From assembly GCA_049523555.1 (NCBI GenBank), contig JBEKMU010000013.1, forward strand, positions 2,707 through 66,706: a stretch of 64,000 nucleotides of DNA, read 5' to 3'. Below the pieces are notes generated by a model. The model saw only the letters and a program-made list of their open reading frames with translations. It was not told the DNA's origin and ran no database searches. This document shows positions 641-52,272 of the stretch, one piece after another (the stretch's first letter is position 1; each line of letters opens with the position of its first letter). The stretch is from Verrucomicrobiota bacterium. GTDB taxonomy: Bacteria > Verrucomicrobiota > Verrucomicrobiia > Limisphaerales > UBA11358. Both the position numbers and the translations under genes were made by a program.

Positions 641-1534
641 CTAGAAACGCTTCGTGAGGGTCAGCGTGACGGCGTTGCCCTGCGCCCGGTTCTCGGCCAT
701 GAATTCGTAATTGTAGCGGAGCGAGACGAAGAACATCTGCTTCGGAAAAGCCACGTTGACTTCCGGGCCGACGGCCGCCACGCGATTGCGGCTGCTGGAC
801 GGCGAGCCGCTGTTGGCGGTCACCTGTTGCTGGTAGTAGCCCACCGCGCCCAGGTCAACGACCTTCGCCACCGTCTTGCTGACGCCCCATTCCAGCGTGT
901 AGGCATCTCCGTAAGTAACCTCTGTGTCACGCTGCTCGGTGTTGAACTCGAAGCGGTTCAACGCCGACACCGCCCAAGTCTTTTCCTCATCAATATACCA
1001 AGTGGCCCCGGCGGTTTGCATGAACGTCCAATAGCCCTGGCCGGGCTTCGTCGTAGGCCCGGGACTGGTTGGGGAGTCGCCCGTGGGCATGTCAACGCCG
1101 CTGCCGATCGCAAAGTCAAACTGCTTGAGATGCCACGACAGCGTACCTTCGGCGAACAAGTCACCGACACCGAACGTGTTGGCGCTGAACCCCGGGTTGG
1201 CACTGGCCTGCTGGTAAACGAGCGGCAAAAAACCGTCCACGCCCACGTTACCGCCGAGCAATTTCGTGTCCGTAATCCAGAGCAGACGGGGAAGGTTGAC
1301 GTAGGTAAACGCGTCGAGGTCGGCCGGGCCAATTTTATTGCCGGACGAATCGTTCAACTGGTCGGCCCAGTAGAAGTAATTGTAGTCGCGGAAATAGACG
1401 CCCGGCGGCGGCAGTGAGGCGCCTTTGATGCCTTCCACGCCGGGCGCGTAATGGGCCGAGGGTTGGGCCTGCAAAATACCCGGCAGCGCCATCAGTGACG
1501 CCGCCAGCAAGAGGAATTGGATTCGAGTTTTCAT
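641..1534 (-). CDS. Outer-membrane beta-barrel protein, MetA-pathway/phenol-degradation-like transporter family
   Basis: Signal peptide MKTRIQFLLLAASLMALPGILQA, alternating beta-strand pattern, aromatic-rich sequence and a C-terminal F. The N-terminal GxYFRDYNxFY pattern resembles Pfam Phenol_MetA_deg (from memory). Confidence 0.6.
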   Translation of the reverse strand: MKTRIQFLLLAASLMALPGILQAQPSAHYAPGVEGIKGASLPPPGVYFRDYNYFYWADQLNDSSGNKIGPADLDAFTYVNLPRLLWITDTKLLGGNVGVDGFLPLVYQQASANPGFSANTFGVGDLFAEGTLSWHLKQFDFAIGSGVDMPTGDSPTSPGPTTKPGQGYWTFMQTAGATWYIDEEKTWAVSALNRFEFNTEQRDTEVTYGDAYTLEWGVSKTVAKVVDLGAVGYYQQQVTANSGSPSSSRNRVAAVGPEVNVAFPKQMFFVSLRYNYEFMAENRAQGNAVTLTLTKRF

Positions 1535-1564: not shown

Positions 1565-2890
1565 TTAAACATCCTGCAATTTGCCGGTCAGGAAGGCCTC
1601 ATAGGCGCTCAAATCGAGCAGGCCGTGGCCGGAAAGGTTGAAGAGAATAACGCGTTTCTTTCCGGCGTCGCGGGCTTTCTTCGCTTCTTCGATGACCGCG
1701 GCAATCGCGTGCGCGGATTCTGGGGCGGGCACAATCCCTTCGCTGCGCGCAAAGAGTGTTCCGGCCTCGAAGACTTTCGTCTGATGATAAGCTTCCGCCT
1801 CGATAAGTCCGAGTTTGAGGGCGTGGCTGACCATCGGCGACATGCCGTGATAACGCAGTCCGCCCGCGTGGATCGGCGGCGGCATGAAATCATGTCCCAG
1901 CGTGTACATCATCAGCAGCGGCGTGGTCATGGCCGTGTCGCCGAAATCGTAGCGCAGTTCACCCTTGGTCATCGAAGGACAGGCGGAAGGTTCGACGGCG
2001 ACAATGCGATACTTCTTTTTCCCGGTGATTTTCTTGTGGATGAACGGAAACGCGATGCCGGCGAAATTGCTCCCGCCGCCGCAGCAGGCGATGATCGAGT
2101 CCGGCTCCTCGCCGGCCATTTCCATCTGTTTGATGGATTCCTGGCCGATGACGGTCTGGTGGAGGCATACGTGATTCAGCACACTGCCGAGCGAGTATTT
2201 CGTGTTCGGATGCTTGGCGGTATCTTCAATGGCTTCGCTGATGGCGATGCCGAGGCTGCCCGGACACTTCGGGTTCTGCGCCCGTACTTTGCGCCCGTAT
2301 TCGGTCTGGTCACTGGGGCTGGGATGCACCGTCGCGCCCCAAGTGTGCATGAGCATCCGGCGATAGGGCTTTTGCTCGTAGCTGACCTTGACCATGTAAA
2401 CGTTGCACTCCAGGCCAAAGAGTTTGCACCCCAGTGCCAAGGCCGAACCCCACTGGCCTGCGCCCGTTTCGGTGGCGAGCCGTTTGGTGCCGGCGACCTT
2501 GTTGTAATAAGCTTGCGCAACGGCGGTGTTGGGCTTGTGGCTGCCGGCGGGGCTGGCGCCTTCGTATTTGTAATAAATGTGCGCCGGTGTCTGGAGCGCC
2601 TTCTCGAAGCGCAACGCACGCAGCAGGGGCGTTGGCCGCCACAGCGCGTAGATGTCGCGGATCTCATCGGGAATCGGAACCCAGCGGTCGGGGCACATTT
2701 CCTGTTTGACGAGGTTCTCTGGAAAAATTGCCAGTAACGCGTCCGGCGGCACGGGCTGTTTGGTGCCCGGATGCAGCGGCGGCGGCAGCGGTTCCGGAAA
2801 GTCAGCCAGCAGATTGTACCATTGCTTGGGAATGTCAGCCTGTGTCAACGCGAAGTGGGTTTGCGTGTTCATAATGGTTGAAGTTGGCAA
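1565..2890 (-). CDS. TrpB-like PLP-dependent enzyme (tryptophan synthase beta chain 2 type)
   Basis: 441 aa. [13 protein letters not shown] at the N-terminus, the [20 protein letters not shown]-lysine motif and a GGGSNFAG glycine loop are characteristic of the TrpB2 clade. Confidence 0.9.
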
Positions 2891-3522
2891 ATAGTTTACC
2901 AGCCGTCAAACCCCTTGTCACGCAAATATTAGCGGACTGCTATAGTGCTAATAATTAAAACAACTGGAAGTTATTCAAATGGCTGGCGCCGGCCCGCCGG
3001 TTTCTGTCGTAGTGATGTCCTCAACGCTTTCGCCGGCAAGCGTTGACGTCATCTCCCGCCCGCACCCGGACGTTTATGCGAAGTGATATGAGCGCGAGGG
3101 CAAATCAGAATGGCGCATTCGAAACGAATGCTAAATCAATTCAGCCACGAAGCCTCAGAATAGGCTGCATTTGTAGTGTCAAACATTATAAAAAGAGTCG
3201 TATCCCAACTGATAGACAAATTTTGCCGGTCTGTCAAAATAAGCGGTATGAAATCGCGATGCCGCCGACATCACCGGTGGTCTTCTGGCACTTCTGACGA
3301 TCAACGTCCCGGCAACCGTGCGTTATGCGAATGTGAGCAGAAACGAGGCATTTCCGGACACAGGATTGTACTAACAACCTATCCGGCCGACGAAGCACCT
3401 CCACTTCGACATGTTTCATCAGGTGGAAACGCTTCAACCATTATCCGCCAAGCTTTTTTCCTAGATACAGATAAGGAAGGCGTACAAAGGAAGTTGTTGA
3501 GGAAAATTTTGGAGTCGAAAGC

Positions 3523-6500
3523 ATGAAACCGAAAATGCTCCTTCTGGTCATGATGGCAAGTGCCGGTACTATTCTCAGGCCACCCTTTGCGACGGCACAG
3601 CAGATTTTACATGGTCATGTGCCGGAGGCTGTGGTGCGCCTGCGGTTGCAGCCGATTGGCCGGCTTGCCGGCACGAATCATCTGTCACTGGCGATCGGAC
3701 TGCCGTTACGGAACCGGGAATCACTCACCAATTTGCTTCAGCAGCTTTATGATCCGGCCAGCACCAATTACCACCACTATCTTACACCGCAACAATTCAC
3801 CGAAGCCTTTGGTCCGACCGAACAGGATTATAAGGCGGTCATCGCTTTTGCAAAAGCGAACAACCTGACAGTGGCGACAACCCATCCCAACCGACTGTTG
3901 CTCGACGTGAGCGGAACGGTGGCGGAAATTGAGCAAGCGCTCAAGGTAACGCTGCGCGTTTACCAGCATCCGACGGAAAAGCGCACTTTTTACGCGCCGG
4001 ACACGGCGCCTTCACTCGCCTTGACCGTTCCGGTCTTGCACATCAGCGGCCTGGATAATTACGCGTTGCCGCATCCCCGGCTCAAGGCCAGCCATATTGC
4101 GAAAAACAACACCGCGTCGCCCAACACCGGTTCGGGACCTGACGGCTGCTATATGGGGAACGATTTCCGGGCCGCTTACGTTCCGGATTCGTCATTGACC
4201 GGTTCGGGACAGGTGGTCGGTTTGTTGCAGTTTGATGGATATACGGCCAGCGACATCATTTACTACGAGAATCTGGCCGGGCTGCCAAATGTTACATTGA
4301 CCAATGTGCTGTTGGACGAATTCGACGGCTACCCGACTGGTTATGGAGATATTGAGGTCTGTCTGGACATTGAAATGGCCATTTCGATGGCACCGGATTT
4401 ATCCCAGGTGATTGTTTATGAAGCGCCGAACGGCAGTCCGTTTGAGGACATCATGAACCGTATGGCCACGGACAACCTGGCCAGGCAGTTGAGTTGTTCA
4501 TGGTATATACCCGACGGTAGGCCCGATGCGACCGCCGACCAGATTTGGCAAGAGATGGCGGCGCAGGGCCAGTCATTTTTCAACGCGTCAGGTGACTACG
4601 GAGCCTATACCGGTTTGATTAGCTTTCCCGGTGACACGCCCTATATCACCCAGGTTGGCGGAACAACTTTGACGACGAGCGGTCCGGGCGGAGTCCGGCT
4701 GTCTGAAACCGTTTGGAACCGGAACAATGGCATCGCCAGCGGCGGCGGAATCAGCACGAGTTATCCAATTCCGGACTGGCAAGCAGGGCTCGACATGACA
4801 GCCTGTCAAGGCTCGGTGACGATGCGCAACACGCCGGATGTGGCGCTGACCGCTGACGATATTTACGTCCGAGCCGATGGTCAGGACTACTCTGTCGGCG
4901 GAACCAGTTGTGCCGCCCCATTGTGGGCGGGATTCATGGCCCTGGTCAACCAGCAGGTCGCCGCCTACGGCAGGCCGCCCGCCGGCTTCATCAACCCGGC
5001 CATCTATGCCCTGGCCAAAGGATCGTTTTATGGCGCCTGCTTTCATGACATCACCACCGGCAATAACACCAACAACAGCAGCCCAAATCTTTACTATGCC
5101 GTTCCCGGCTACGACCTCTGCACGGGTTGGGGCACGCCCAACGGCGCGAACCTCATCAACGCCCTGGCTCCGCCCGACTGGCTGGTTATTACTCCATCCT
5201 ACGGCTTCACTTCCAGCGGCAATCCTGGTGGGCCATTCTCCGTCAATTCACAGAGCTTGAACTTGACCAACGCAGGAACCAACCAGTTTGCCTGGTCTCT
5301 CAGCAATACTTCACCCTGGCTGAATGTCTCGACCAACGGAGGCACACTGACGCCGGGCGGAGCCTCAGCCACGGTGATGGTGAGCCTTAGCCCGGCGGCC
5401 AGCGACCTGCCCCCCGGCGTATACACCGCAACGCTCTGGTTCACCAACCTCGATGATTCAATCGGACAGGGTCGCACCTTTACTTTGATCGTGCTGGGCG
5501 CACCTATGATAGCTGTGCAGCCAAAGAATCAAGTGGCTGTAGCGGGTGGCACTGCAACTTTCACCATCAAAGTAACGGGTGCCACACCCTTGAGTTACAC
5601 CTGGCAGAGGAACGGCAGCTACATCCCTGGCGCGACCAATGCGATTTACACCAACAACAACGCGCAATTGTCCGACTCCGGCAGCCAGTTCTGTTGCATG
5701 GTCACCAACGCCTTTGGCGCCATCACCAGTTCGGTCGCGTCGTTGACAGTCTTCAGTCCTCCCTGGCACTTGTTTAGCGGATTCGATGGCGCCAATCCTG
5801 CCGGCGCTCTGGTGCTGGGCAGTGACGGCAACTTCTATGGCACGACCGAGGGCGGTGGGTTCTACGGCTGTGGAACCATATTCAGAATGACAACGAATGG
5901 GGAGTTGACCACCTTGGTCTCGTTCAACAACGCGAATGGAGTCTTTCCTGCAGCCGGTCTGGTGCAGGGCAGCGACGGCAACTTCTACGGCACCGCGGAA
6001 TACGGCGGAGCCTACAGCTATGGAACCATTTTCAGAATGACTGCCAATGGCGCGCTGACCACCCTGGTTTCGTTCAATGGCACGAATGGTTCAATACCCC
6101 AAGCCGTTCTGGTGCAGGGCAGCGACGGCAATTTTTATGGCACGACGTCTTATGGCGGAGCGGACTTTAACGGATCCGTGCAGAGCGGCAACGGCACCGT
6201 CTTTAGAATAACGCCCAACGGCCTGCTGACCACCCTGGTTCTGTTCGACATGACGAACACTGGCGCCGATCCCTGCGGTGGCCTAGTGCAGGCCGGTGAT
6301 GGGAATTTCTATGGCACAACCCTTTATGGCACAACCCTGAATGGACCAACCTACGGTACCGTATTCAGAATGACAACCAATGGCGTGTTGACAACGTTGG
6401 TTACGTTCAATGCGCCGTATGCGATGGATGGCGGCGCCCCCTATGCCGGCCTGGTGCAGGGCAATGACGGGAATCTCTATGGCACGACCGCGGCAGGCGG

Positions 6501-8574
6501 AGCCTACAACCTTGGAACCGTATTCAGAGTGACCACCAATGGCTTGCTGACCACCCTGGTTTCGTTCAATGGCACGAATGGGATGAAGCCCCAAGCCGCG
6601 CTGGTGCGGGGCAGCGACGGCAATTTCTATGGCGTCACGTCGTTCGGCGGACCCTACGGTGACGGAACTGTGTTCAGCGTGGCAAGCGATGGGACATTGC
6701 ACACGTTCCTCGTGTTCGCGGGCATCAATGGCTTCTGGCCCACAGCCGCGCTGGTGCAAGGCAGTGATGGCAATTTCTATGGCACGACTTTTTATGGCGG
6801 CGACGGCTACGACCCCCTGTTGGACTTTAGTGGCAATGGCATCGTCTTCCGCCTGGTGCCGCCTCCAAGCCCAAGCCCGCCGCTAATTGTCGTGCAACCT
6901 CTGAATCAGACCGCGGTGGTCGGCGACACCGCGTCCTTCTCCATCATCGCCATCGGCAGCGCAGCTTTGAGTTATTCCTGGATGCACCAAGGTGCCTTGG
7001 TTCCCGGTGCAACGAGCGCCACTTGCACGCTGACGAACGTTTCCGCGGCGGACGCGGGCAGTTACTACGCTGTCGTGACCAATGACTACGGCAGTGTCAC
7101 CAGCCGCGTAGCCACCTTAACCATAACCGCGTTGGTGGCGGCTGAACTCGGAGTTTACGGCCAGCAACTGGTGGTATTTTTTCCGACCACTACCAGAACC
7201 AATTATACGCTGCAAATCACCACCAATCCAGCTTCCGGCAATTGGGTGACGGTCACCAACGGCATTCCCTTGAGCGGCTTGGAAATTGACAGCGTCCCCG
7301 GCCCAGCCTTTTTCCGGTTTAGCCGCGGTAGGCCAAGCGTAACATGTCTTGCTGCCGGCTATTCCCACAGCCTGTTTGTGAAACACGACGGCAGTCTGTG
7401 GGCCATGGGCAACAACAGTTGCGGCCAGTTGGGCAACGGTACTTACAACAGCACCAACCTCCCCGAGGAAATTGTGGCCGACAACGTCATGGCAATGGCC
7501 GGCGGTTGGACACATAGTCTATTTGTGGAACGCGACGGCAGTTTGTGGGGTATGGGCTGCAACACTTTTGGCCAGTTGGGCAACGGCGCTTTCAGCACCG
7601 ACACCCCCGAGGAGATTGTGACCACCAACGTCACAGCCATTGCCGCCGGCGGTTTGCATACCCTGTTTATCAAGGGCGATGGCAGCCTGTGGGCCATGGG
7701 TTGGAACCAGTCTGGCCAGTTGGGTGACGGAACTTACATTAACACCAACCGTCCCGAACAAATTGTGACCAGTGATGTTATGGCCATCGCCGGCGGATAT
7801 TGTCACAGTCTTTTCCTGAAGAGTGACGGCAGCCTGTGGGCCATGGGCAACAACAGTTGCGGCCAGTTGGGTGACGGAATTTACATTAACACCAACCACC
7901 CCGAACAGATCGTGGCCAGCAATGTTATGGCCATTGCCTGCGGATATAGCCACAGCCTTTTCTTGAAGAGTGACGGCAGCCTGTGGGCCATGGGCGATAA
8001 TTCTTACGGCGAATTGGGCGACGGCTCTTACAACCGGACGAACCGGCCCGAGCAGATCGTTGCCAGCAATGTCACAGCCATTGCTGCCGGAAATGGTTTC
8101 AGTTTGTTTTCCGAGCGCGACGGCAGCCTGTGGGCCATGGGTTGGAACCAGTCTGGCCAGTTGGGTAACGGAACTTACATCAACACCAACCGCCCCGAAC
8201 AGATCATGGCCAGCAATGTTATGGCCATTGCCTGCGGATATAGCCACAGCCTTTTCCTGAAGAGTGACGGCAGCCTGTGGGCCATGGGCGATAATTCTTA
8301 CGGCGAATTGGGCGACGGCTCTTACGCCACCAACTTCCCCTACGGAATCAACCACCCCGAGGAGGTTGTGGGCATTAGTGTACCCGTGCTGGGTATTGGT
8401 ACCTGGAGCAATCAGCCGGTGGTTTTTTACCCGGTCGCCACCGCCACCAATGATTTGCTGCTGATTACGACCAATCTCACATCCGGCAATTGGGCGCCAT
8501 TCAGCACCGGCATTCCCTTCAGCATCCTGCAAATCCCCAACGTCCCCAGCCCCTTCTTTTTCCGGCTGTATTAA
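3523..8574 (+). CDS. Secreted multidomain protein: pro-kumamolisin/sedolisin (S53) peptidase + BACON/Ig-like domains + 7x Gloeo_Verruco repeats + Ig-like + 7x RCC1 repeats
   Basis: Signal peptide MKPKMLLLVMMASAG...ATAQQ. An S53 pro-domain and catalytic domain with the serine motif VGGTSCAAPLWAG (about nt 4890-4930). Two Ig I-set-like modules (PxIxVQPxNQxAVxGxTAxF...YxxVVTNxxGSVTS). Seven xGSDGNFYGTT...GTIFRMTxNGxLTTLVSFN units. Seven HSLFxKSDGSLWAMGxNxxGQLGDG units. Confidence 0.9.
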   Translation: MKPKMLLLVMMASAGTILRPPFATAQQILHGHVPEAVVRLRLQPIGRLAGTNHLSLAIGLPLRNRESLTNLLQQLYDPASTNYHHYLTPQQFTEAFGPTEQDYKAVIAFAKANNLTVATTHPNRLLLDVSGTVAEIEQALKVTLRVYQHPTEKRTFYAPDTAPSLALTVPVLHISGLDNYALPHPRLKASHIAKNNTASPNTGSGPDGCYMGNDFRAAYVPDSSLTGSGQVVGLLQFDGYTASDIIYYENLAGLPNVTLTNVLLDEFDGYPTGYGDIEVCLDIEMAISMAPDLSQVIVYEAPNGSPFEDIMNRMATDNLARQLSCSWYIPDGRPDATADQIWQEMAAQGQSFFNASGDYGAYTGLISFPGDTPYITQVGGTTLTTSGPGGVRLSETVWNRNNGIASGGGISTSYPIPDWQAGLDMTACQGSVTMRNTPDVALTADDIYVRADGQDYSVGGTSCAAPLWAGFMALVNQQVAAYGRPPAGFINPAIYALAKGSFYGACFHDITTGNNTNNSSPNLYYAVPGYDLCTGWGTPNGANLINALAPPDWLVITPSYGFTSSGNPGGPFSVNSQSLNLTNAGTNQFAWSLSNTSPWLNVSTNGGTLTPGGASATVMVSLSPAASDLPPGVYTATLWFTNLDDSIGQGRTFTLIVLGAPMIAVQPKNQVAVAGGTATFTIKVTGATPLSYTWQRNGSYIPGATNAIYTNNNAQLSDSGSQFCCMVTNAFGAITSSVASLTVFSPPWHLFSGFDGANPAGALVLGSDGNFYGTTEGGGFYGCGTIFRMTTNGELTTLVSFNNANGVFPAAGLVQGSDGNFYGTAEYGGAYSYGTIFRMTANGALTTLVSFNGTNGSIPQAVLVQGSDGNFYGTTSYGGADFNGSVQSGNGTVFRITPNGLLTTLVLFDMTNTGADPCGGLVQAGDGNFYGTTLYGTTLNGPTYGTVFRMTTNGVLTTLVTFNAPYAMDGGAPYAGLVQGNDGNLYGTTAAGGAYNLGTVFRVTTNGLLTTLVSFNGTNGMKPQAALVRGSDGNFYGVTSFGGPYGDGTVFSVASDGTLHTFLVFAGINGFWPTAALVQGSDGNFYGTTFYGGDGYDPLLDFSGNGIVFRLVPPPSPSPPLIVVQPLNQTAVVGDTASFSIIAIGSAALSYSWMHQGALVPGATSATCTLTNVSAADAGSYYAVVTNDYGSVTSRVATLTITALVAAELGVYGQQLVVFFPTTTRTNYTLQITTNPASGNWVTVTNGIPLSGLEIDSVPGPAFFRFSRGRPSVTCLAAGYSHSLFVKHDGSLWAMGNNSCGQLGNGTYNSTNLPEEIVADNVMAMAGGWTHSLFVERDGSLWGMGCNTFGQLGNGAFSTDTPEEIVTTNVTAIAAGGLHTLFIKGDGSLWAMGWNQSGQLGDGTYINTNRPEQIVTSDVMAIAGGYCHSLFLKSDGSLWAMGNNSCGQLGDGIYINTNHPEQIVASNVMAIACGYSHSLFLKSDGSLWAMGDNSYGELGDGSYNRTNRPEQIVASNVTAIAAGNGFSLFSERDGSLWAMGWNQSGQLGNGTYINTNRPEQIMASNVMAIACGYSHSLFLKSDGSLWAMGDNSYGELGDGSYATNFPYGINHPEEVVGISVPVLGIGTWSNQPVVFYPVATATNDLLLITTNLTSGNWAPFSTGIPFSILQIPNVPSPFFFRLY
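5773..6862 (+). repeat. Seven tandem Gloeo_Verruco (GloVer, choice-of-anchor type) repeats inside the giant CDS
   Basis: I counted seven occurrences of G(S/N/G)DGN(F/L)YG, each followed by G(T/I)(I/V)F(R/S). The period is about 50 aa. Confidence 0.8.
7345..8370 (+). repeat. Seven tandem RCC1-type propeller blades inside the giant CDS
   Basis: Seven DGSLW(A/G)MG...GQLG(D/N)G units with a period of about 49 aa. Some pairs are nearly identical at the DNA level. Confidence 0.85.
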
Positions 8575-8789
8575 AACTGTTCAGCACTTGGCGAATCATA
8601 ATGGCAGCGTCATGACGGTTGGTGGTGGTGATAAGCTTCGCTTCAATCTCAACACGATCGGATTCCTTTAAAACACGTTCACGCATTGCATTGAACGCCT
8701 CATATCAAAACCGGGTCGCCACTGGGGTTGAACAACCCCAACCGCGGCAAAAGAAAAAATCCGACTGAGGAATTGGTCAGGGTTGGGAT

Positions 8790-9479
8790 TTAGAGCGAGC
8801 CTTCGGCTTGCATCCAATGGATGGCGTGTTGCAGGAGGTCGTTGGCATCTTTGAGGTTCAACTTCTCCTTGATGCGGGCGCGGTAGGTTTCAACGGTCCG
8901 CATGTCCAGATGAAGTTCGTCCGCGATCTGGCGCGTGCCGTGACCCTGACCGATCATTTCAAAGACCAGCAATTCGCGATCGGAAAGTTTGTCCATGGGC
9001 AGGCTGGGTTTGGCCCGCGCACCGCCAACCGCGGCAGCGGCGATTTGCGCCGCCATTTTTTCACTCAGGTAAATGTCACCGTTCAACACCGTGCGAATGG
9101 CCAGCATGATTTTCCGGGTGGCCTCCTGCTTGGTGATGTAGCCGCGGGCCCCGGCGCGAATCACCCGTTCCGCATGGAGCATTTCATCGTGCATCGAAAC
9201 CACCAGCACCACCAAATCCGGATACTGACTGCGAATGTCCTTGATCAATTCCATGCCATGCGAACGTTTGAGCGTGAGGTCCACGATGGCCAGATGCGGA
9301 CGCGTGGCAGCAATCAATTCCAGGGCCCGGAAACGGTCTTCCGCTTCGCCGCAGACGGCCAGATCCGGCTCGCGTTGGATGACTTCCGCCAGACGCTCGC
9401 GAACCATCGGGTGATCGTCCACCAGCAAGATGCGCATTTTTTCCGGCGGCGCTATTCCAGACTTTTTGTCCATTGCCAT
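8790..9479 (-). CDS. Response regulator, NarL/FixJ family (REC + LuxR-type HTH)
   Basis: MRILLVDDHPMVRE receiver start, a phospho-acceptor D in AIVDLTL, and a C-terminal LSDRELLVFEMIGQGHGTRQIADELHLDMRTVETYR HTH. Confidence 0.9.
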   Translation of the reverse strand: MAMDKKSGIAPPEKMRILLVDDHPMVRERLAEVIQREPDLAVCGEAEDRFRALELIAATRPHLAIVDLTLKRSHGMELIKDIRSQYPDLVVLVVSMHDEMLHAERVIRAGARGYITKQEATRKIMLAIRTVLNGDIYLSEKMAAQIAAAAVGGARAKPSLPMDKLSDRELLVFEMIGQGHGTRQIADELHLDMRTVETYRARIKEKLNLKDANDLLQHAIHWMQAEGSL

Positions 9480-9488
9480 AAATTGAAT

Positions 9489-11024
9489 TCAAACGGATGG
9501 CCGCGGAGCGAAGCACGAAACCACTGTCCCACCCTTCGGCCCACGCTCGATATTTAACACGCCACCAATCGTCCGCGCGCGGTAAGCCATGATGTGCATT
9601 CCCATCCCGCGGGTCGCGTTCAACGGAAGGGAAATGCCGATGCCGTCGTCGCTGATTTTCAATTCAACCCGGTTTTGGCTGGCTTGCAACTGAATTAAAA
9701 TCGAACCAGCCCGGCTGTGTTTGACCGCGTTGTTCACTGCTTCCTGTGCGATACGGTAAAGGTGTGTCGCCACAGTGTTGTCGCGGACAAACACGGGTTG
9801 CGGACAGTCCACCCGGCAATTCACCTTGGTGCGGGCGCATGTGCTCGCGGCCAGTTGTTGCAACGCCAGGTTTAAGCCATCCGTTTCCAGTTGCACGGGG
9901 AAAAGCCCCCGCGACAAGGCGCGAGCTTCCGTGATCACGTCATCGAGCACCTCGCCCATTTTTTGGGCGGCGGCAGTTTCGGGCAGCGCGCGGGCGGCGA
10001 GTTGTTGCTCGAGGGAATGGTTGTCGAAACCAAGGCTGACCAACTGCTGGCAAAGCCCGTCGTGCAAGTCCTGCCCGATGCGCGCCTGTTCGCGATCGCT
10101 GATTTCCAGAATTTCGCGCTCCAGCCGGTGCCGCTCTGTAATGTCTTCTGCAATGCCGACAATGCGGATAACTTTGCCGTGGCTGTCGCGAATCGGAAAG
10201 GCGCGGTCGCGAATCCATCGCAGGGTGCCATCCGGCCTTACGATACGGTATTCCTGGTTGTATTCCCCGGTGGTTTGTTTCGTGAGCATGGCTTGGGCAA
10301 CCTGTTCACGATCCTCCGGGTGAATGGCCTCCAGCCATGCGTGCGGGGATTGGTACAGATCCTTGCAACTGCGCCCCCAGATTTTTTCGTACGCCGGGCT
10401 GACATAGACCATGTGGGTTTCTTCCGAGTCTCTCATCCAGAAAGCATCGCTGATGTTTTCAGCCAGTTGGCGCAACTGTTGCATGGTTTTACGCAATTGT
10501 TCCTCGGTTTGTTTGCGGTCGCCGATTTCACGTTCCAACGCGGTGGTCCGTTCCTTGACCCGCTGCTCGAGATGTTCGGTCAAGCTGCGGACAGCGGATA
10601 CCAGCAAAACGACGAATAATGAAATCCCGATCTGCACCGCCAAATTCCAGTAAAGAATCCCAAGCTGTGAGCTGTGATTGACCTCATCCACGAACGAAGC
10701 GAGCGAACTGACCAGCGCGATTAGTACCCCGGCCTTTCTGCCACCTTTCCATGCGGCATAGGATGCGATTAACAGATAAAACAAGGTAAAACTGACTCGT
10801 TGAACAGACCGGTAGTCAATGATTGCAGCCAGAATGGTCAGGAAAAGGCAGACGACGCTGATAGCGGCTTCCGAAGGTTGTTTCAGCCGACGGGTCGGAT
10901 TCCGCTCATTGGCATGGGGAATGGCGTAATAGTCAACGACCGCGCTCAGAATGGCCGGGAGGGAGACAATCATGCCCACCACAGCTTCGAAACGCTGCCT
11001 TAGCCAGTTGCCCGGTTTTTGCAT
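9489..11024 (-). CDS. Membrane sensor histidine kinase (PAS + HisKA_3 + HATPase_c)
   Basis: N-terminal TM helices and a PAS-like segment (VYVSPAYEKIWG...). H-box IGQDLHDGLCQQL, N-box AQEAVNNAVKHS and G-box DDGIGI. It ends 9 nt upstream of the response-regulator gene. Confidence 0.9.
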   Translation of the reverse strand: MQKPGNWLRQRFEAVVGMIVSLPAILSAVVDYYAIPHANERNPTRRLKQPSEAAISVVCLFLTILAAIIDYRSVQRVSFTLFYLLIASYAAWKGGRKAGVLIALVSSLASFVDEVNHSSQLGILYWNLAVQIGISLFVVLLVSAVRSLTEHLEQRVKERTTALEREIGDRKQTEEQLRKTMQQLRQLAENISDAFWMRDSEETHMVYVSPAYEKIWGRSCKDLYQSPHAWLEAIHPEDREQVAQAMLTKQTTGEYNQEYRIVRPDGTLRWIRDRAFPIRDSHGKVIRIVGIAEDITERHRLEREILEISDREQARIGQDLHDGLCQQLVSLGFDNHSLEQQLAARALPETAAAQKMGEVLDDVITEARALSRGLFPVQLETDGLNLALQQLAASTCARTKVNCRVDCPQPVFVRDNTVATHLYRIAQEAVNNAVKHSRAGSILIQLQASQNRVELKISDDGIGISLPLNATRGMGMHIMAYRARTIGGVLNIERGPKGGTVVSCFAPRPSV

Positions 11025-37953: not shown

Positions 37954-38030
37954 GGAGTAATGGAGTAATGGAGTAATGGAGTGTTGGAAATCTTTTTCGG
38001 TGCCGCACCACTCCACCACTCCATCACTCC
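37952..38030. repeat. AATGGAGT-type inverted-repeat hairpin element (second copy)
   Basis: ATGGAGTAATGGAGTAATGGAGTAATGGAGTGTTGG ... CCACTCCACCACTCCATCACTCCG. It fills the birA-coaX gap. Confidence 0.8.
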
Positions 38031-38032
38031 GT

Positions 38033-39010
38033 TCATTTCTCAAGCGTTACATCCCCACCCGTGATGCGTTCCAAATGTCCATGTTCGGTCCGCAGCAACA
38101 GCGCGCCATCGTCATCCAGCGACTCGGCCCGACCGCTCACGCGCCGCCCGCCGATTTGAATCGTCACCGCGCGGCCAATTGTCGTGCAATGCGCTTCCCA
38201 CTCGTCAGCCACGTCTGCAAAAAAATCGCCACAGACGCGCGCGTAATCACAGTCGAGTTCGCGCAAAATGGCCGTTGCCAGCTCCGGACGGGAAATGGTT
38301 TTGCCGGCTTCAATTCTCAACGACGTCGCCGTCCTGCGCAATTCCGCCGGAAATTCATTCACGCTCAGGTTCACATCCACGCCGATGCCGAGGATGACGT
38401 GCTTGACGCAGTCCAATTCCGCGCTCATTTCCGTCAGAATGCCCGCGACTTTCCTGCCGCGAATCAAAATGTCGTTCGGCCATTTGATTTCCGGGTTCAG
38501 GCCGGTTTCGGATTGAATCGCACGCCGCAGAGCCATGGCGGAAGCAACGGTGAGTCGCGTTGTTTCCTGCGGGCGCAAATCCGGTCGCAGCAAAATGGAA
38601 AACCAAAGGCCTTTTCGCGCCGGCGACATCCACGCGCGACCGAGCCGGCCCCGGCCTTTCGTCTGCGATTCCGCAAAAACGACGGCGCCTTCCTTCACAC
38701 CGTCGCGCGCGAGCTTTTCAATCACGTCGTTGGTCGAAGTCGTCTGTTCAAACACGCGGATGTCGCGCCCGACGATTTTCGTTTTGCCGAGGCGCGCGAG
38801 CAAATCGTCCGCGTACAGCGCGTCGGGAACGCTCACGAGCCGGTAGCCGAAGTGCGGGCTGGCCTCGATGTCGTAGCCAAGCTGGCGCAACTCCTCGATG
38901 TGTCCCCAAATCGCCGCGCGCGTGACGCCCAGTTGCTCGGCGATTTCCGCACCCGACACCCCGTCGGTATTCGCGCGCAACGCGGTAAGAATTTTTGCGT
39001 CCGTCGTCAT
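38033..39010 (-). CDS. birA: Bifunctional biotin--[acetyl-CoA-carboxylase] ligase / biotin operon repressor
   Basis: N-terminal HTH (SGAEIAEQLGVTRAAIWGHIEELRQLGY) and the ligase motif ESQTKGRGRLGRAWMSP. Confidence 0.92.
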   Translation of the reverse strand: MTTDAKILTALRANTDGVSGAEIAEQLGVTRAAIWGHIEELRQLGYDIEASPHFGYRLVSVPDALYADDLLARLGKTKIVGRDIRVFEQTTSTNDVIEKLARDGVKEGAVVFAESQTKGRGRLGRAWMSPARKGLWFSILLRPDLRPQETTRLTVASAMALRRAIQSETGLNPEIKWPNDILIRGRKVAGILTEMSAELDCVKHVILGIGVDVNLSVNEFPAELRRTATSLRIEAGKTISRPELATAILRELDCDYARVCGDFFADVADEWEAHCTTIGRAVTIQIGGRRVSGRAESLDDDGALLLRTEHGHLERITGGDVTLEK

Positions 39011-39016
39011 TTTACA

Positions 39017-39084
39017 ATCGTCCTCGTCGTCGTCCTCGTTCTCGAAATCGAATCATCGAGGAGAAGGACGAGAATGAGGACGAT
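39017..39084. repeat. GTCCTCGT-type inverted-repeat hairpin element
   Basis: ATCGTCCTCGTCGTCGTCCTCGTTCTCG ... CGAGGAGAAGGACGAGAATGAGGACGAT. It fills the nadC-birA gap. Confidence 0.8.
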
Positions 39085-39088
39085 AAAA

Positions 39089-40024
39089 TCATGTTTCAAA
39101 ATCCAAACCGATGTCCACCGCGCGCGCGGAATGTGTGAGCGCGCCGACGGAAATGAAATCCACGCCGGTCCCGGCAATCGCGCGGACATTCGCCAGATTC
39201 ACGCCGCCGCTGGCCTCGGTCTTCATGCGGCCTTTGACTTTCTGCACCGCCAGCCGCAGTTGAATCGGGTTCATGTTGTCGAGCAAAATGATGTCCGCCC
39301 ACGCATCGGCGGCCTGCTCGACCTGCTCCAGCTTGTCGGCTTCGACCTCAATTTTCAGTTTCGGAAACTTTTCGCGCGCGCGCTGGACGGCGGCGGCGAT
39401 GGCATTCGGTTTTTCACCGCGCAGCGCCGCGAGGTGATTGTCCTTGATGAGCACCATGTCGAACAGGCCGGTGCGATGGTTGTGCCCGCCACCGCACGCG
39501 ACGGCGTATTTCTCGAAACGCCGCCAGCCGGGCGTGGTTTTGCGCGTGTCCAGAATCTGCGCGTGAGTTCCTTTGATGGCTTCGACAAATTGCGCAGTAA
39601 GCGTGGCGATGCCGGAAAGCCGCTGGACGAAATTCAACGCGACACGCTCGGCGCTCAAAAGGGCGCGGGCCGGGCCGGAAATTTTCAGCAAGGTTTCATT
39701 CTCACCGACATGTTGGCCGTCATTCGCCAGCCGCTCAATTTTGATTTCCCCTTCGGAGGGCGGAGTTCCACGACGCCCTGATTCATTTTGAGATTTTGGG
39801 GGCTCGCAGCGCTCGCCCCTCCGATTGATGAATTGTAAGACTTCGCAGAACGCAGCTTCGGCGAAGGCGAGTCCGGCCACGACGAGCGGTTCGCGCGCAC
39901 GCATGAGCGCTTTGGCCGTCGCGGTTGCGGGCACGATGGATAAAGTCGTGGCGTCACCGCTGCCGATGTCCTCGGCAAGGGCCAGCTTGACGGCCTGACG
40001 GATTTCTGCGGCGGACAATTCCAC
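39089..40024 (-). CDS. nadC: Nicotinate-nucleotide diphosphorylase (carboxylating)
   Basis: AEIRQAVKLALAEDIGSGDATT, LDTRKTTPGWR and IEVEADKLEQVEQAADAWADIILLDNM. The likely GTG start at 40024 gives M-ELSAAEI. The longest ORF reaches 40144 but would overlap the divergent gene. Confidence 0.85.
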   Translation of the reverse strand: MELSAAEIRQAVKLALAEDIGSGDATTLSIVPATATAKALMRAREPLVVAGLAFAEAAFCEVLQFINRRGERCEPPKSQNESGRRGTPPSEGEIKIERLANDGQHVGENETLLKISGPARALLSAERVALNFVQRLSGIATLTAQFVEAIKGTHAQILDTRKTTPGWRRFEKYAVACGGGHNHRTGLFDMVLIKDNHLAALRGEKPNAIAAAVQRAREKFPKLKIEVEADKLEQVEQAADAWADIILLDNMNPIQLRLAVQKVKGRMKTEASGGVNLANVRAIAGTGVDFISVGALTHSARAVDIGLDFET

Positions 40025-49130: not shown

Positions 49131-49247
49131 AAATTGTGCCGGCAATATGGACGCCGTTGACGGGAATGGCAAGTGGGATTTGTTCGTTTTGTCCCCGCGC
49201 GCCAATTAAAAGCTTTTAATTGACGACAGTAGGAATATTTTTCACCC

Positions 49248-50666
49248 ATGCAACCGGGGACTGTCCGGAAAACCAAAATCATCGCCACGCTGGGGCCGGC
49301 CACCGATACAGCAGAGATGATTGCGCGGCTCATGGAGGCAGGCGTCAACCTGTTCCGCCTCAACATGTCGCACGCGCCGCATGATTGGGTGCGCCGTGTT
49401 TACAGAGACATTCGCGCCGCCGCCGCCGCCCGGCGGCAATTCATCGGCATCATGCTGGACACGCAAGGCCCGGCCATCCGCACCGGCGACATCAGCTCGC
49501 CGCTTGATTTGCAGCCCGGCCAGAAATTCACCCTCACCGTCCGCGGCGAACGCGACCTGGAGGAACATTCCGTGGACGTGAATTACGCGAATTTCGTCAA
49601 CGACATCAGCCTCGGCGACGTGGTGCTCATTGACAACGGCGCGATTCAAATGAAGGTGCTCGCCAAGGACGGCAACCGGGTCGAGTGCGAAGTCCTCACC
49701 GAAGGCACGCTCGGCAGCCGCCGCCACATCAACCTGCCCGGCGTCAAGGTCAGCCTGCCTGCGCTCACGGCCAAGGATATCCAGGACGTGAAGCTCGGCC
49801 TCGAACTCGGCGTGGATTTCATCGCGCTGTCGTTCGTCCGCGAAGTCCGCGACCTGCTCCAATTGAAGGAGCTTTTCAGCAAGGACAAACCGCCACCGCT
49901 TGTCATCGCCAAAATCGAAGACCGGCAGGCAGTTCAAAATCTGGAATCCATCGTCCGCGAAACCGACGGCATCATGGTCGCCCGCGGCGATTTGGGCATT
50001 GAAATTCCGTACGAGGAACTGCCCATTGTCCAGCGCCGCATCGTCAAATCGTGTTTGCGTCAGGGCAAACCCGTCATCGTCGCCACGCACATGCTCGAAA
50101 GCATGATTGAGTCGCCCATGCCCACGCGCGCCGAGGTCACCGATGTGGCCAATGCCGTTTATGAAGAGGCCGACGCCATCATGCTCAGCGGCGAGACGAC
50201 CGTCGGCAAATATCCGCTCAAGTGCATCGAGGTGTTTGACCGCATCGCCGCGCGCATCGAGCGCAGCGGCAGCGCGCAATTCTCCGACACGGCGGAGTTG
50301 AGCAGCCCGCGGCAGAAACTTGTCAAAAGCGCCGTCGTCATGGCCAATGAATTGAAGGCGGCGGCGATCCTGGTGATTACGCGCAGCGGCAACATGGCGC
50401 GCTATGCCGCCTGGATGCGCCCGCATTATTCGCCCATCTACGCGCTTTGTCCCGGCAACAACGTGGCCGGCGGTCTGACGTTGAGCTGGGGCGTCACGCC
50501 GTTCGTCGTGCCGTTTGACCTCATCAATCCGGAAAACACCATCGAAACCTCGCTGAAAAGCCTGGTCGAACAAGGCCGGCTGCGCAAAGGCACCACCGTC
50601 GTCATCATCGGCTCCATCCTCGTCGGCGAACAAATCGTGGACGCGGTGCAGATGCGGGTGGTGTGA
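49248..50666 (+). CDS. pyk: Pyruvate kinase
   Basis: RKTKIIATLGPA, FRLNMSHA, MVARGDLGIEIP and ATHMLESM. Confidence 0.97.
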   Translation: MQPGTVRKTKIIATLGPATDTAEMIARLMEAGVNLFRLNMSHAPHDWVRRVYRDIRAAAAARRQFIGIMLDTQGPAIRTGDISSPLDLQPGQKFTLTVRGERDLEEHSVDVNYANFVNDISLGDVVLIDNGAIQMKVLAKDGNRVECEVLTEGTLGSRRHINLPGVKVSLPALTAKDIQDVKLGLELGVDFIALSFVREVRDLLQLKELFSKDKPPPLVIAKIEDRQAVQNLESIVRETDGIMVARGDLGIEIPYEELPIVQRRIVKSCLRQGKPVIVATHMLESMIESPMPTRAEVTDVANAVYEEADAIMLSGETTVGKYPLKCIEVFDRIAARIERSGSAQFSDTAELSSPRQKLVKSAVVMANELKAAAILVITRSGNMARYAAWMRPHYSPIYALCPGNNVAGGLTLSWGVTPFVVPFDLINPENTIETSLKSLVEQGRLRKGTTVVIIGSILVGEQIVDAVQMRVV

Positions 50667-50691
50667 GGCCGGCAGAACAGACGATTGAAAA

Positions 50692-52272
50692 TTACCGCGC
50701 TCGCTTGCGTGTGAAGACCAGCAAGTTGGCATCCGCCACTTCGTTCGTTGCCAGCGGCTCCGACCAATGGCCTCCCTGTTTGTCAGTCACATAGCCGCCG
50801 ACGAGAACGTAATCCTGCTGCAAAAATTGATCCAAGAATTCATAAAATCCTGGCGGAGTTCCCACTTGCCATAACCAACTGTTTGCTGTCGGCGTGAAAA
50901 CAATCAGTTTCGGCGGGTATTCCTGCAAGTCGTCAATGGCTTCGCGCTGATATTTTCGCGCCACAGCGGTCGGTATCATCAGCGGATAAACGGTTATGAA
51001 TCGTGTATGGCTGAAGCGCTGGGCGTAATAAAGAATTTGCGGCTCGGAACCGGCGACGAAAACAAAATCGTTGGGCGAGCTTAATTCAGCCATGCGCTTG
51101 GCAACCACTGGCGAGCTGAAGAATGGGAACCCGTCCATTTTCACTTCCGCAAACCGTTCGCGCGTGCATATCAGCCAGGGCACATCGGAACGGATCACCA
51201 GAAGCACGACCGCAGCCGTGAGCAAACACCCGGTCCATCGGGCCGGTCGCGCCGACCATTCAGTGATGCGCGAAGCGAGGGCGCAGATGCCAACGGCGCT
51301 CAACAACGCCCAGAACGGCATTATCACAATATAATATTGCGGGTATCCACTCGCACCGGTCGCAAAAATTGCGCTGACGAACATGCCCAGCCAGAACCAG
51401 ACGCGCGGTCCTGGTTGCAACCAGGCGGCCCACGGGACAAAAAACAAAATCCACCAGTTGGTCCAAAAAGTTCCAAACCTGGACCAGAGGTAGGTCATGC
51501 CAAAATTATTTGATGTCACATAGTAGCGGTTGAACAGCACCGTGCATTCCCATAACCGCGCACCGCCGTCGTGGGCCAAAAAAAATCCCAATTCCAAAAT
51601 AGACGCCAGCAACGCGCCCAGAACCACCGCCAGCCAGCTTTGGCGTAACAATCTCGCGTTATGCGTCTGCCGCCACTGCTCGACCGACCAAACCGCAAAA
51701 ACGAACACAAGCACTGGTAGCGAGGTGTATTTGTAACACAACGCCGTCACACCCAAAAACCCCGCCGCCAGCCAGTATTTTGGTCTGTGGCCGCGATGCC
51801 GGCTGCGGATGTAAACGGTGATGGTTGCCAGCAGCGGCAGCAACATGAACATTTCCGTGTTGGCGGTGAATTCATCAATGCCGGGCAGTAGGATCATCGG
51901 CGTCGCCAGCCACATTGCCGGCAGGGCAAAGCCTTTTCCGAACTCCAGCCGCGCGATGTATCCCAGGAAAACCGTCGCCAGCGCCACGAACACATACGCC
52001 AGCAAACGCGGTGCCCAGAAAACATCCGGCAAAAGCAGGTTGGCAAGCGCGTAACTGTAGATGATCATTGGCGGCTTTTGGATGAAAGCGTGTTGGTATG
52101 GCGCAATACCGTGAATCAGAAGCTGGGCGGAATAGGCGTATTCCCCCTCGTCGCGAATCAACGGCGCATTGCAACTGTTCCAGCGTAGCGCAATGAACAG
52201 GAAACCGATTCCCAGAATTCCCAGCCATCTGCCCGGATGTCCGCCGCCGGGAAATGAGGTTTCTGTTTTCAT
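50692..52272 (-). CDS. Polytopic membrane glycosyltransferase, GT39/ArnT-like
   Basis: 12 or more TM helices. The first-loop acidic motif is RDEGEYAYSAQLL. A soluble domain follows at the C-terminus. Assigned from topology and motif only. Confidence 0.6.
   Translation of the reverse strand: MKTETSFPGGGHPGRWLGILGIGFLFIALRWNSCNAPLIRDEGEYAYSAQLLIHGIAPYQHAFIQKPPMIIYSYALANLLLPDVFWAPRLLAYVFVALATVFLGYIARLEFGKGFALPAMWLATPMILLPGIDEFTANTEMFMLLPLLATITVYIRSRHRGHRPKYWLAAGFLGVTALCYKYTSLPVLVFVFAVWSVEQWRQTHNARLLRQSWLAVVLGALLASILELGFFLAHDGGARLWECTVLFNRYYVTSNNFGMTYLWSRFGTFWTNWWILFFVPWAAWLQPGPRVWFWLGMFVSAIFATGASGYPQYYIVIMPFWALLSAVGICALASRITEWSARPARWTGCLLTAAVVLLVIRSDVPWLICTRERFAEVKMDGFPFFSSPVVAKRMAELSSPNDFVFVAGSEPQILYYAQRFSHTRFITVYPLMIPTAVARKYQREAIDDLQEYPPKLIVFTPTANSWLWQVGTPPGFYEFLDQFLQQDYVLVGGYVTDKQGGHWSEPLATNEVADANLLVFTRKRAR

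Follow-up and report, generated by a model that had tools for sequence, protein, structure and literature searches.

Gene and domain organization

The locus described here lies in a 64,000-nucleotide stretch of DNA from an uncultured, Limisphaerales-like Verrucomicrobiota bacterium (contig JBEKMU010000013.1), hereafter the window, and centres on one plus-strand gene for a large protein in which an S53 (sedolisin) protease is joined to two seven-unit repeat arrays. The gene, at 3523..8574, is an uninterrupted open reading frame (ORF) of 1683 codons that starts with ATG, with a GGAG motif 8 nt 5' of the start codon, and an independent JGI contig carries the identical gene call. Read by eye, the N-terminus, MKPKMLLLVMMASAGTILRPPFATA followed by QQ, resembles a Sec signal peptide, as it combines two basic residues (K2, K4) with a hydrophobic core and an AxA site. 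The ORF for a 1683-aa secreted protein, as announced in a preliminary description of this DNA, is thus real. A promoter and terminator scan of 2850..8850 gave counts not above those of shuffled sequence. Also the domain order proposed in that description holds, as each named domain was detected by Pfam, NCBIfam or homology in the expected succession: signal peptide, S53 pro-domain, S53 catalytic domain, BACON-like module, immunoglobulin (Ig)-like module, seven GloVer repeats, a second Ig-like module, a small module of ~65 aa, seven RCC1 repeats and the ~65-aa module again (Table 1).

The pro-kumamolisin activation model Pro-kuma_activ (PF09286) matches with an E-value of 1.7e-27 and 96.9 bits, against a cut-off of 23.5, and a phmmer search of solved structures identified residues 46-550 as homologous to pro-kumamolisin (1t1e, E 1.8e-53). 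Matches to kumamolisins range from this value to 1e-39, including kumamolisin-As (1sio, E 8.2e-41), followed by TPP1 (E 7e-22) and sedolisin (E 1e-18). The catalytic residues E278 and D282 are found in IEVCLDIE, the oxyanion residue D358 in SGDYG and S462 in GGTSCAAP, aligned with the E-x-x-x-D, SGD and GGTS motifs of kumamolisin, and all four are at least 90% conserved across 53 homologues. The aspartates of the kumamolisin Ca site (HDIT, PGYD) are aligned as well. The preliminary description had allowed for a missing Ser, Glu or Asp; since all are present, this objection falls away. By everything that can be judged from sequence, the window protein belongs to S53. Compared to the characterised kumamolisins and sedolisins (MEROPS S53), the homology extends over the pro- and catalytic domains, ~500 residues in total, whereas those enzymes are single-module proteins of ~550 aa. 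The window protein instead has ~1130 extra residues, made up of the BACON-like module, two Ig-like modules, two propellers (one of them a likely propeller, see below) and two small modules.

The two repeat arrays and their spacers

The RCC1 part is recognized by the Pfam model WD40_RLD (PF25390, E 2.8e-90, 303.7 bits) and by PF00415 and PF13540 (RCC1 and RCC1_2, seven matches each), with the RCC1-like domain match spanning residues 1367-1612. An AlphaFold model of residues 1196-1683, built on 76 sequences, presents this part as a closed propeller at a predicted local distance difference test score (pLDDT) of ~98, and Foldseek aligns the model to UVR8 with an E-value of 2.9e-38, a target-normalised TM score of 0.89 and a root-mean-square deviation of 2.0 A over ~370 columns. 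HERC2, RPGR, RCC1 and BLIP-II (E 3.9e-17) are among the other structural matches. Thus, the window protein carries a bona fide RCC1-like propeller, and the seven blades anticipated earlier are borne out. The blades have a median identity of 65%. In the DNA, tandem repeats with periods of 147 and 441 (the latter equal to three blades) run through 7365-8289, and individual blade pairs reach 82% identity, suggestive of a recent amplification by units of three blades. Highly similar blades have been linked to ongoing blade amplification in propellers by Pereira and Lupas (PMC9218822), who also describe BLIP-II as a secreted bacterial protein binder. Indeed, BLIP-II (PDB 1jtd) and the RCC1 part of the window protein are both secreted bacterial RCC1-like seven-bladed propellers with highly similar blades; BLIP-II, however, is a free-standing inhibitor, while the window propeller is fused to a protease.

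In the GloVer array, TIGR03803 matches in seven stretches with a repeat of ~50 aa (E 6.6e-110, 358.8 bits against a cut-off of 44), in line with the count of seven given before, and the repeats have a median pairwise identity of 57%. By sequence, the protein thus carries a bona fide TIGR03803 array. NCBI files an identical protein under the name of this model, 'choice-of-anchor tandem repeat GloVer-containing protein', but the name denotes a repeat and not a function. We considered whether GloVer and RCC1 repeats could be distant relatives and discarded the idea because hhalign of the blade profiles returned a probability of 1%; the two arrays are, as previously suggested, unrelated at the sequence level.

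An AlphaFold model of residues 555-1205 (54 sequences, mean pLDDT 91.2) shows a beta-sandwich and an Ig domain, then seven four-stranded units (pLDDT >90) and a second Ig domain. Foldseek with this model returned Ig chains only and no propeller match, a sequence search of the PDB found no solved relative of the GloVer array, and the GloVer blade profile gave only sub-threshold matches to BamB-like and pectate lyase structures. The array is for these reasons only a likely seven-bladed propeller. The beta-sandwich is the BACON-like module. BACON_2 matches here weakly and below threshold (residues 575-640, 18.9 bits against a cut-off of 25), the same region of the homologues P0002, P0013 and P0063 scores above the cut-off (27.6-37.4 bits), and the model is all-beta at pLDDT >88.

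A small module at the C-terminus

The two copies of the ~65-aa module, internal copy A and terminal copy B, are 47% identical to each other and can be aligned with the last ~65 residues of nearly every relative in this protease family. The best matches of both copies are C-terminal modules of other proteins, and the stand-alone RCC1 proteins P0192, P0209 and P0214 end in the same type of module as B. A profile built from 26 copies and searched among 1.84 billion cluster representatives retrieved 18,309 of them at E <=0.001 and 1078 at E <=1e-10. The position is nearly constant: a copy lies at most 12 residues from the C-terminus in 108 of 109 module-carrying S53-family hits, in all 54 RCC1 hits and in 137 of 146 representatives, and an [FYW][FYW]R[LIVFAM] strand precedes the stop by 1-4 residues in 258 of 290 proteins. 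Some proteins carry tandem arrays of up to ten copies. The carriers are secreted proteins of diverse kinds, including proprotein-convertase and subtilisin-like proteases, LRR+PKD, YDG and RCC1 proteins, and those with an organism name come from Verrucomicrobiota metagenome-assembled genomes (MAGs).

The module itself matches no Pfam or NCBIfam model, aside from weak fn3 and DUF7298 matches in multi-copy proteins, and the profile search of the PDB yielded nothing beyond a marginal match (E 0.0033) to a cohesin-containing protein, a part of which falls on the expression tag of that protein. Both copies are modelled at a pLDDT of 40-70, rendering the predicted fold unreliable.

Gingipains and other cargo peptidases of the type IX secretion system (T9SS) are multi-domain secreted proteases with a prodomain, Ig-like or adhesin modules and a C-terminal sorting domain. 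The layout of the window protein is similar, with a signal peptide, prodomain, protease, Ig-like spacer, binding modules and a small beta-rich C-terminal domain. It differs in being an S53 rather than a C25 or S8 peptidase, in belonging to another phylum, and in that its module also occurs internally and in tandem arrays. Neither the window protein nor module-only proteins matched T9SS C-terminal domain, PEP-CTERM or variant models in Pfam and NCBIfam at E-values up to 0.1, and the window protein ends 1-4 residues after an [FY][FY]R[LIV] strand, with no hydrophobic tail, where PEP-CTERM proteins have a terminal transmembrane helix plus a basic tail. As far as such models reach, it falls into none of the known families of C-terminal sorting signals (on multi-domain proteases bearing a C-terminal sorting domain, cf. 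PMC11982257). It is conceivable, albeit rather doubtful, that the terminal module serves as the recognition or anchoring domain of an undescribed Verrucomicrobiota sorting or surface-attachment pathway, with the S53 family as a major cargo class and the internal copy as a fossil of gene fusion.

Table 1. Features of the protease gene and of the adjacent regulatory gene pair, with positions in the protein and in the window.
Feature	Residues (aa)	Window position	Strand	Basis
Sec-type signal peptide (putative)	1-25	3523..3597	+	By-eye reading; proposed cleavage between ATA and QQ
S53 pro-domain (pro-kumamolisin activation domain)	45-179	3655..4059	+	PF09286 and alignment to the 1t1e pro-segment
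S53 (sedolisin/kumamolisin-type) catalytic domain	210-550	4150..5172	+	phmmer against solved structures, and motifs
BACON-like beta-sandwich	~556-657	5188..5493	+	Sub-threshold BACON_2; homologues above cut-off; model
Ig-like module 1	661-743	5503..5751	+	Pfam Ig_2, Ig_3, I-set; Foldseek matches to Ig chains
Seven GloVer (TIGR03803) repeats	~756-1116	5788..6870	+	NCBIfam
Ig-like module 2	1119-1196	6877..7110	+	Pfam Ig_3 E 1.9e-16, I-set E 8.6e-14
Small module, internal copy A, ends ...FFRF	1205-1269	7135..7329	+	Profile A1, hmmsearch E 6.4e-23
Seven-bladed RCC1-like beta-propeller	~1276-1612	7348..8358	+	Pfam, AlphaFold, Foldseek
Small module, terminal copy B, ends ...FFFRLY and stop	1621-1683	8383..8571	+	Profile A1, hmmsearch E 3.5e-19
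Response_reg+GerE regulator (NarL-type)		8790..9479	-	Domain content
PAS+HisKA_3+HATPase kinase		9489..11024	-	Domain content

A recurrent variant of a large modular family

A search covering 5.8 billion proteins returned 5538 hits at E <=1e-10, of which the best 120 were compared. The identical protein is already deposited at NCBI, from a Verrucomicrobiota MAG, and at JGI under the GloVer name given above. Pro-kuma_activ is present in all but one of the best 120 hits, mostly together with Ig and BACON_2, followed by variable C-terminal parts: CBM_4_9, He_PIG, Big_9, Laminin_G_3, RCC1, a second GloVer array or PF28321. The last of these appears in the precomputed annotations of P0002 and of numerous further relatives. 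In a consensus of 53 relatives the order is S53, BACON, Ig, Ig, seven GloVer, Ig, Ig, seven GloVer, Ig and further parts up to a terminal module; the window protein has an RCC1 propeller in place of the usual second GloVer array. S53 combined with seven GloVer repeats and RCC1 also occurs in P0013, P0030 and P0088, and S53 with RCC1 in the absence of GloVer in P0034, P0063 and a split gene at locus L012. Across the family, the S53-BACON piece stays constant; what is shuffled are the propellers, Ig modules and other heads.

At L012, a 632-aa S53-BACON gene overlaps by 4 nt a 506-aa module-RCC1-module gene (P0213; 6106-9521 for the two). The pair is probably one split or frameshifted short variant (S53-BACON-module-RCC1-module) devoid of GloVer and Ig. 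The same contig also carries a second S53-BACON gene, a transposase and a ParDE pair.

The preliminary description was aware of no characterised protein combining a sedolisin with both arrays. This stands, as we found none either, whereas the implied rarity does not: since P0013, P0030 and P0088 share the combination and the identical protein is deposited, the architecture is a recurrent variant in a large, catalogued, uncharacterised family. A literature search found nothing on TIGR03803/GloVer, on sedolisins in Verrucomicrobia or on S53 with RCC1, and the 'choice-of-anchor' papers it returned concern other domains. Within the window, no paralogue of the protease gene was found.

The gene has the appearance of a fusion, because its RCC1 propeller and terminal module match abundant stand-alone secreted proteins. 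The cassette formed by residues 1196-1683 has thousands of relatives, most of them ~450-aa proteins at 55-65% identity that consist of a signal peptide, seven RCC1 blades and a terminal module of the same kind. At the N-terminus of their mature form stands AQxVTxIAAG..HSLF, a stretch that aligns to the residues immediately following module A (RPSVTCLAAGYSHSLF). The simplest reading of these alignments, and of the best matches of modules A and B to C-terminal modules elsewhere, is that a stem ending in module A would have been joined to a stand-alone RCC1-plus-module gene that lost its signal peptide. Such an event would be common to the subfamily or have recurred, as the spacing between the two module motifs is similar: 416-420 aa in P0013, P0030, P0034 and the window protein. 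In P0063 it is 435 aa.

Proposed function

Taken together, homology, intact and conserved catalytic residues, an export signal, the RCC1 propeller fold and the modularity of the family lead us to favour, with some reservation, that the window gene encodes the zymogen of a secreted, kumamolisin-type sedolisin whose propellers, Ig and BACON-like modules target or anchor the enzyme. It can reasonably be inferred that the protease is tethered to two ligand-binding platforms. Following export by the Sec pathway, as the signal peptide read in the sequence would suggest, the pro-domain would fold, inhibit the catalytic domain and then be removed autocatalytically, probably at mildly acidic pH, by analogy with kumamolisin. 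The mature enzyme would stay linked to its beta-sandwich spacers (BACON-like and Ig) and to the GloVer and RCC1 propellers. These may act as non-catalytic binding modules that hold the protease on a polymer or protein target or at the envelope of the producing cell, and the terminal module might, more speculatively, keep the protein at the cell surface or sort it there.

Several points weigh against this reading. Activity, acid activation, ligand binding and the role of the terminal module are all deduced, acid activation being carried over from distant relatives, and neither propeller can be assigned a ligand. The absence of propeller matches and of solved relatives for the GloVer array, and the unreliable module models, have been mentioned above. 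Finally, the neighbourhoods of related genes are not conserved and give no functional hint.

The most serious rival, which we nevertheless hold to be unlikely, is that the protein functions chiefly as a surface adhesin or structural component, with S53 serving maturation only, by cutting the protein itself or surface proteins with the same C-terminal module. Comparable processing of other surface proteins is carried out by NalP and SphB1, two subtilisin-like autotransporters. About two thirds of the protein are non-catalytic Ig, propeller and beta-sandwich, the terminal module is common to many passengers that are not proteases (LRR+PKD, YDG, RCC1 alone), and the Ig chains retrieved by Foldseek for the middle part are of the adhesion type, all congruent with such a role. 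However, only S53 is constant in the family and the supposedly adhesive parts vary, as would be expected of a protein whose main purpose is proteolysis; the conserved catalytic residues are compatible with either alternative.

A less probable alternative still is a targeted antagonistic protease, the propellers of which recognise a protein of a competitor or prey, as BLIP-II does with beta-lactamases, and the swappable heads of which reflect an arms race. The heads are indeed highly variable in the family, the RCC1 part is structurally similar to BLIP-II, and transposases lie near two homologues. The repetitive blades of both arrays, at the median identities given above, moreover suggest recent amplification and fit the pattern reported in PMC9218822. 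On the other hand, no immunity-like small gene is conserved beside the gene, Pfam and NCBIfam scans detected no toxin or delivery domain, and the same heads occur as abundant stand-alone secreted proteins.

Genomic context

The NarL-type regulator and kinase pair is located directly downstream on the opposite strand, as the preliminary description had it. That the pair and the protease constitute one functional unit, in which the pair would sense a signal and regulate the protease gene, is hinted at by this adjacency, with a gap of 215 bp. But the genes are convergent and hence not co-transcribed, tblastn with the regulator and kinase found neither in 11 related loci except on the identical contig L010, and the neighbourhoods of P0013, P0030, P0034, P0063 and P0213 all differ. 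The functional link hinted at earlier was accordingly rejected, and we consider it very improbable. That assembly or gene calling artificially joined separate genes is hardly credible: the sequence is repeat-rich and the related L012 gene is split into two overlapping calls, but the ORF is single and uninterrupted, the identical protein is present on an NCBI MAG contig and a JGI contig, and the same order, with the module-motif spacing of 416-435 aa, recurs in P0013, P0030, P0034 and P0063 from other samples.

Upstream, and transcribed away from the protease gene, are a Phenol_MetA_deg-type outer-membrane channel and a pyridoxal phosphate-dependent (PALP) enzyme, at 641-1534 (-) and 1565-2890 (-). 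The other large ORFs scanned in the window are housekeeping genes, with a LeuA-like synthase, valyl- and leucyl-tRNA synthetases (ValRS, LeuRS) and complex I subunits. Two ORFs, 37976-39781 (+, 601 aa) and 49242-50732 (-, 496 aa), had no Pfam match at E-values up to 1e-4 and may not be genes, as each overlaps ORFs on the opposite strand.

The close relatives of the window protein derive from Limisphaerales and Verrucomicrobiia MAGs, some with isolate names that include 'SPRUCE', which we take to be an acidic peatland site. Such an origin would suit an acid-active enzyme class.

Implications

The architecture holds no surprise in principle: secreted proteases of modular build are widespread, and each catalytic or repeat domain found here belongs to a known type. 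Sedolisins have so far been studied as small, single-module acid proteases, whereas the group to which the window protein belongs is a very large set in Limisphaerales and Verrucomicrobiia MAGs, in which the protease carries interchangeable propellers, Ig modules and heads of carbohydrate-binding type. If the proposed sorting role is true, the shared terminal module would point to a secretion or anchoring route so far undescribed in Verrucomicrobiota. Furthermore, if the heads direct the enzyme to particular substrates, the family would represent a natural set of targeted proteases; it could also provide a pathway for protein turnover in acidic soils and peat.

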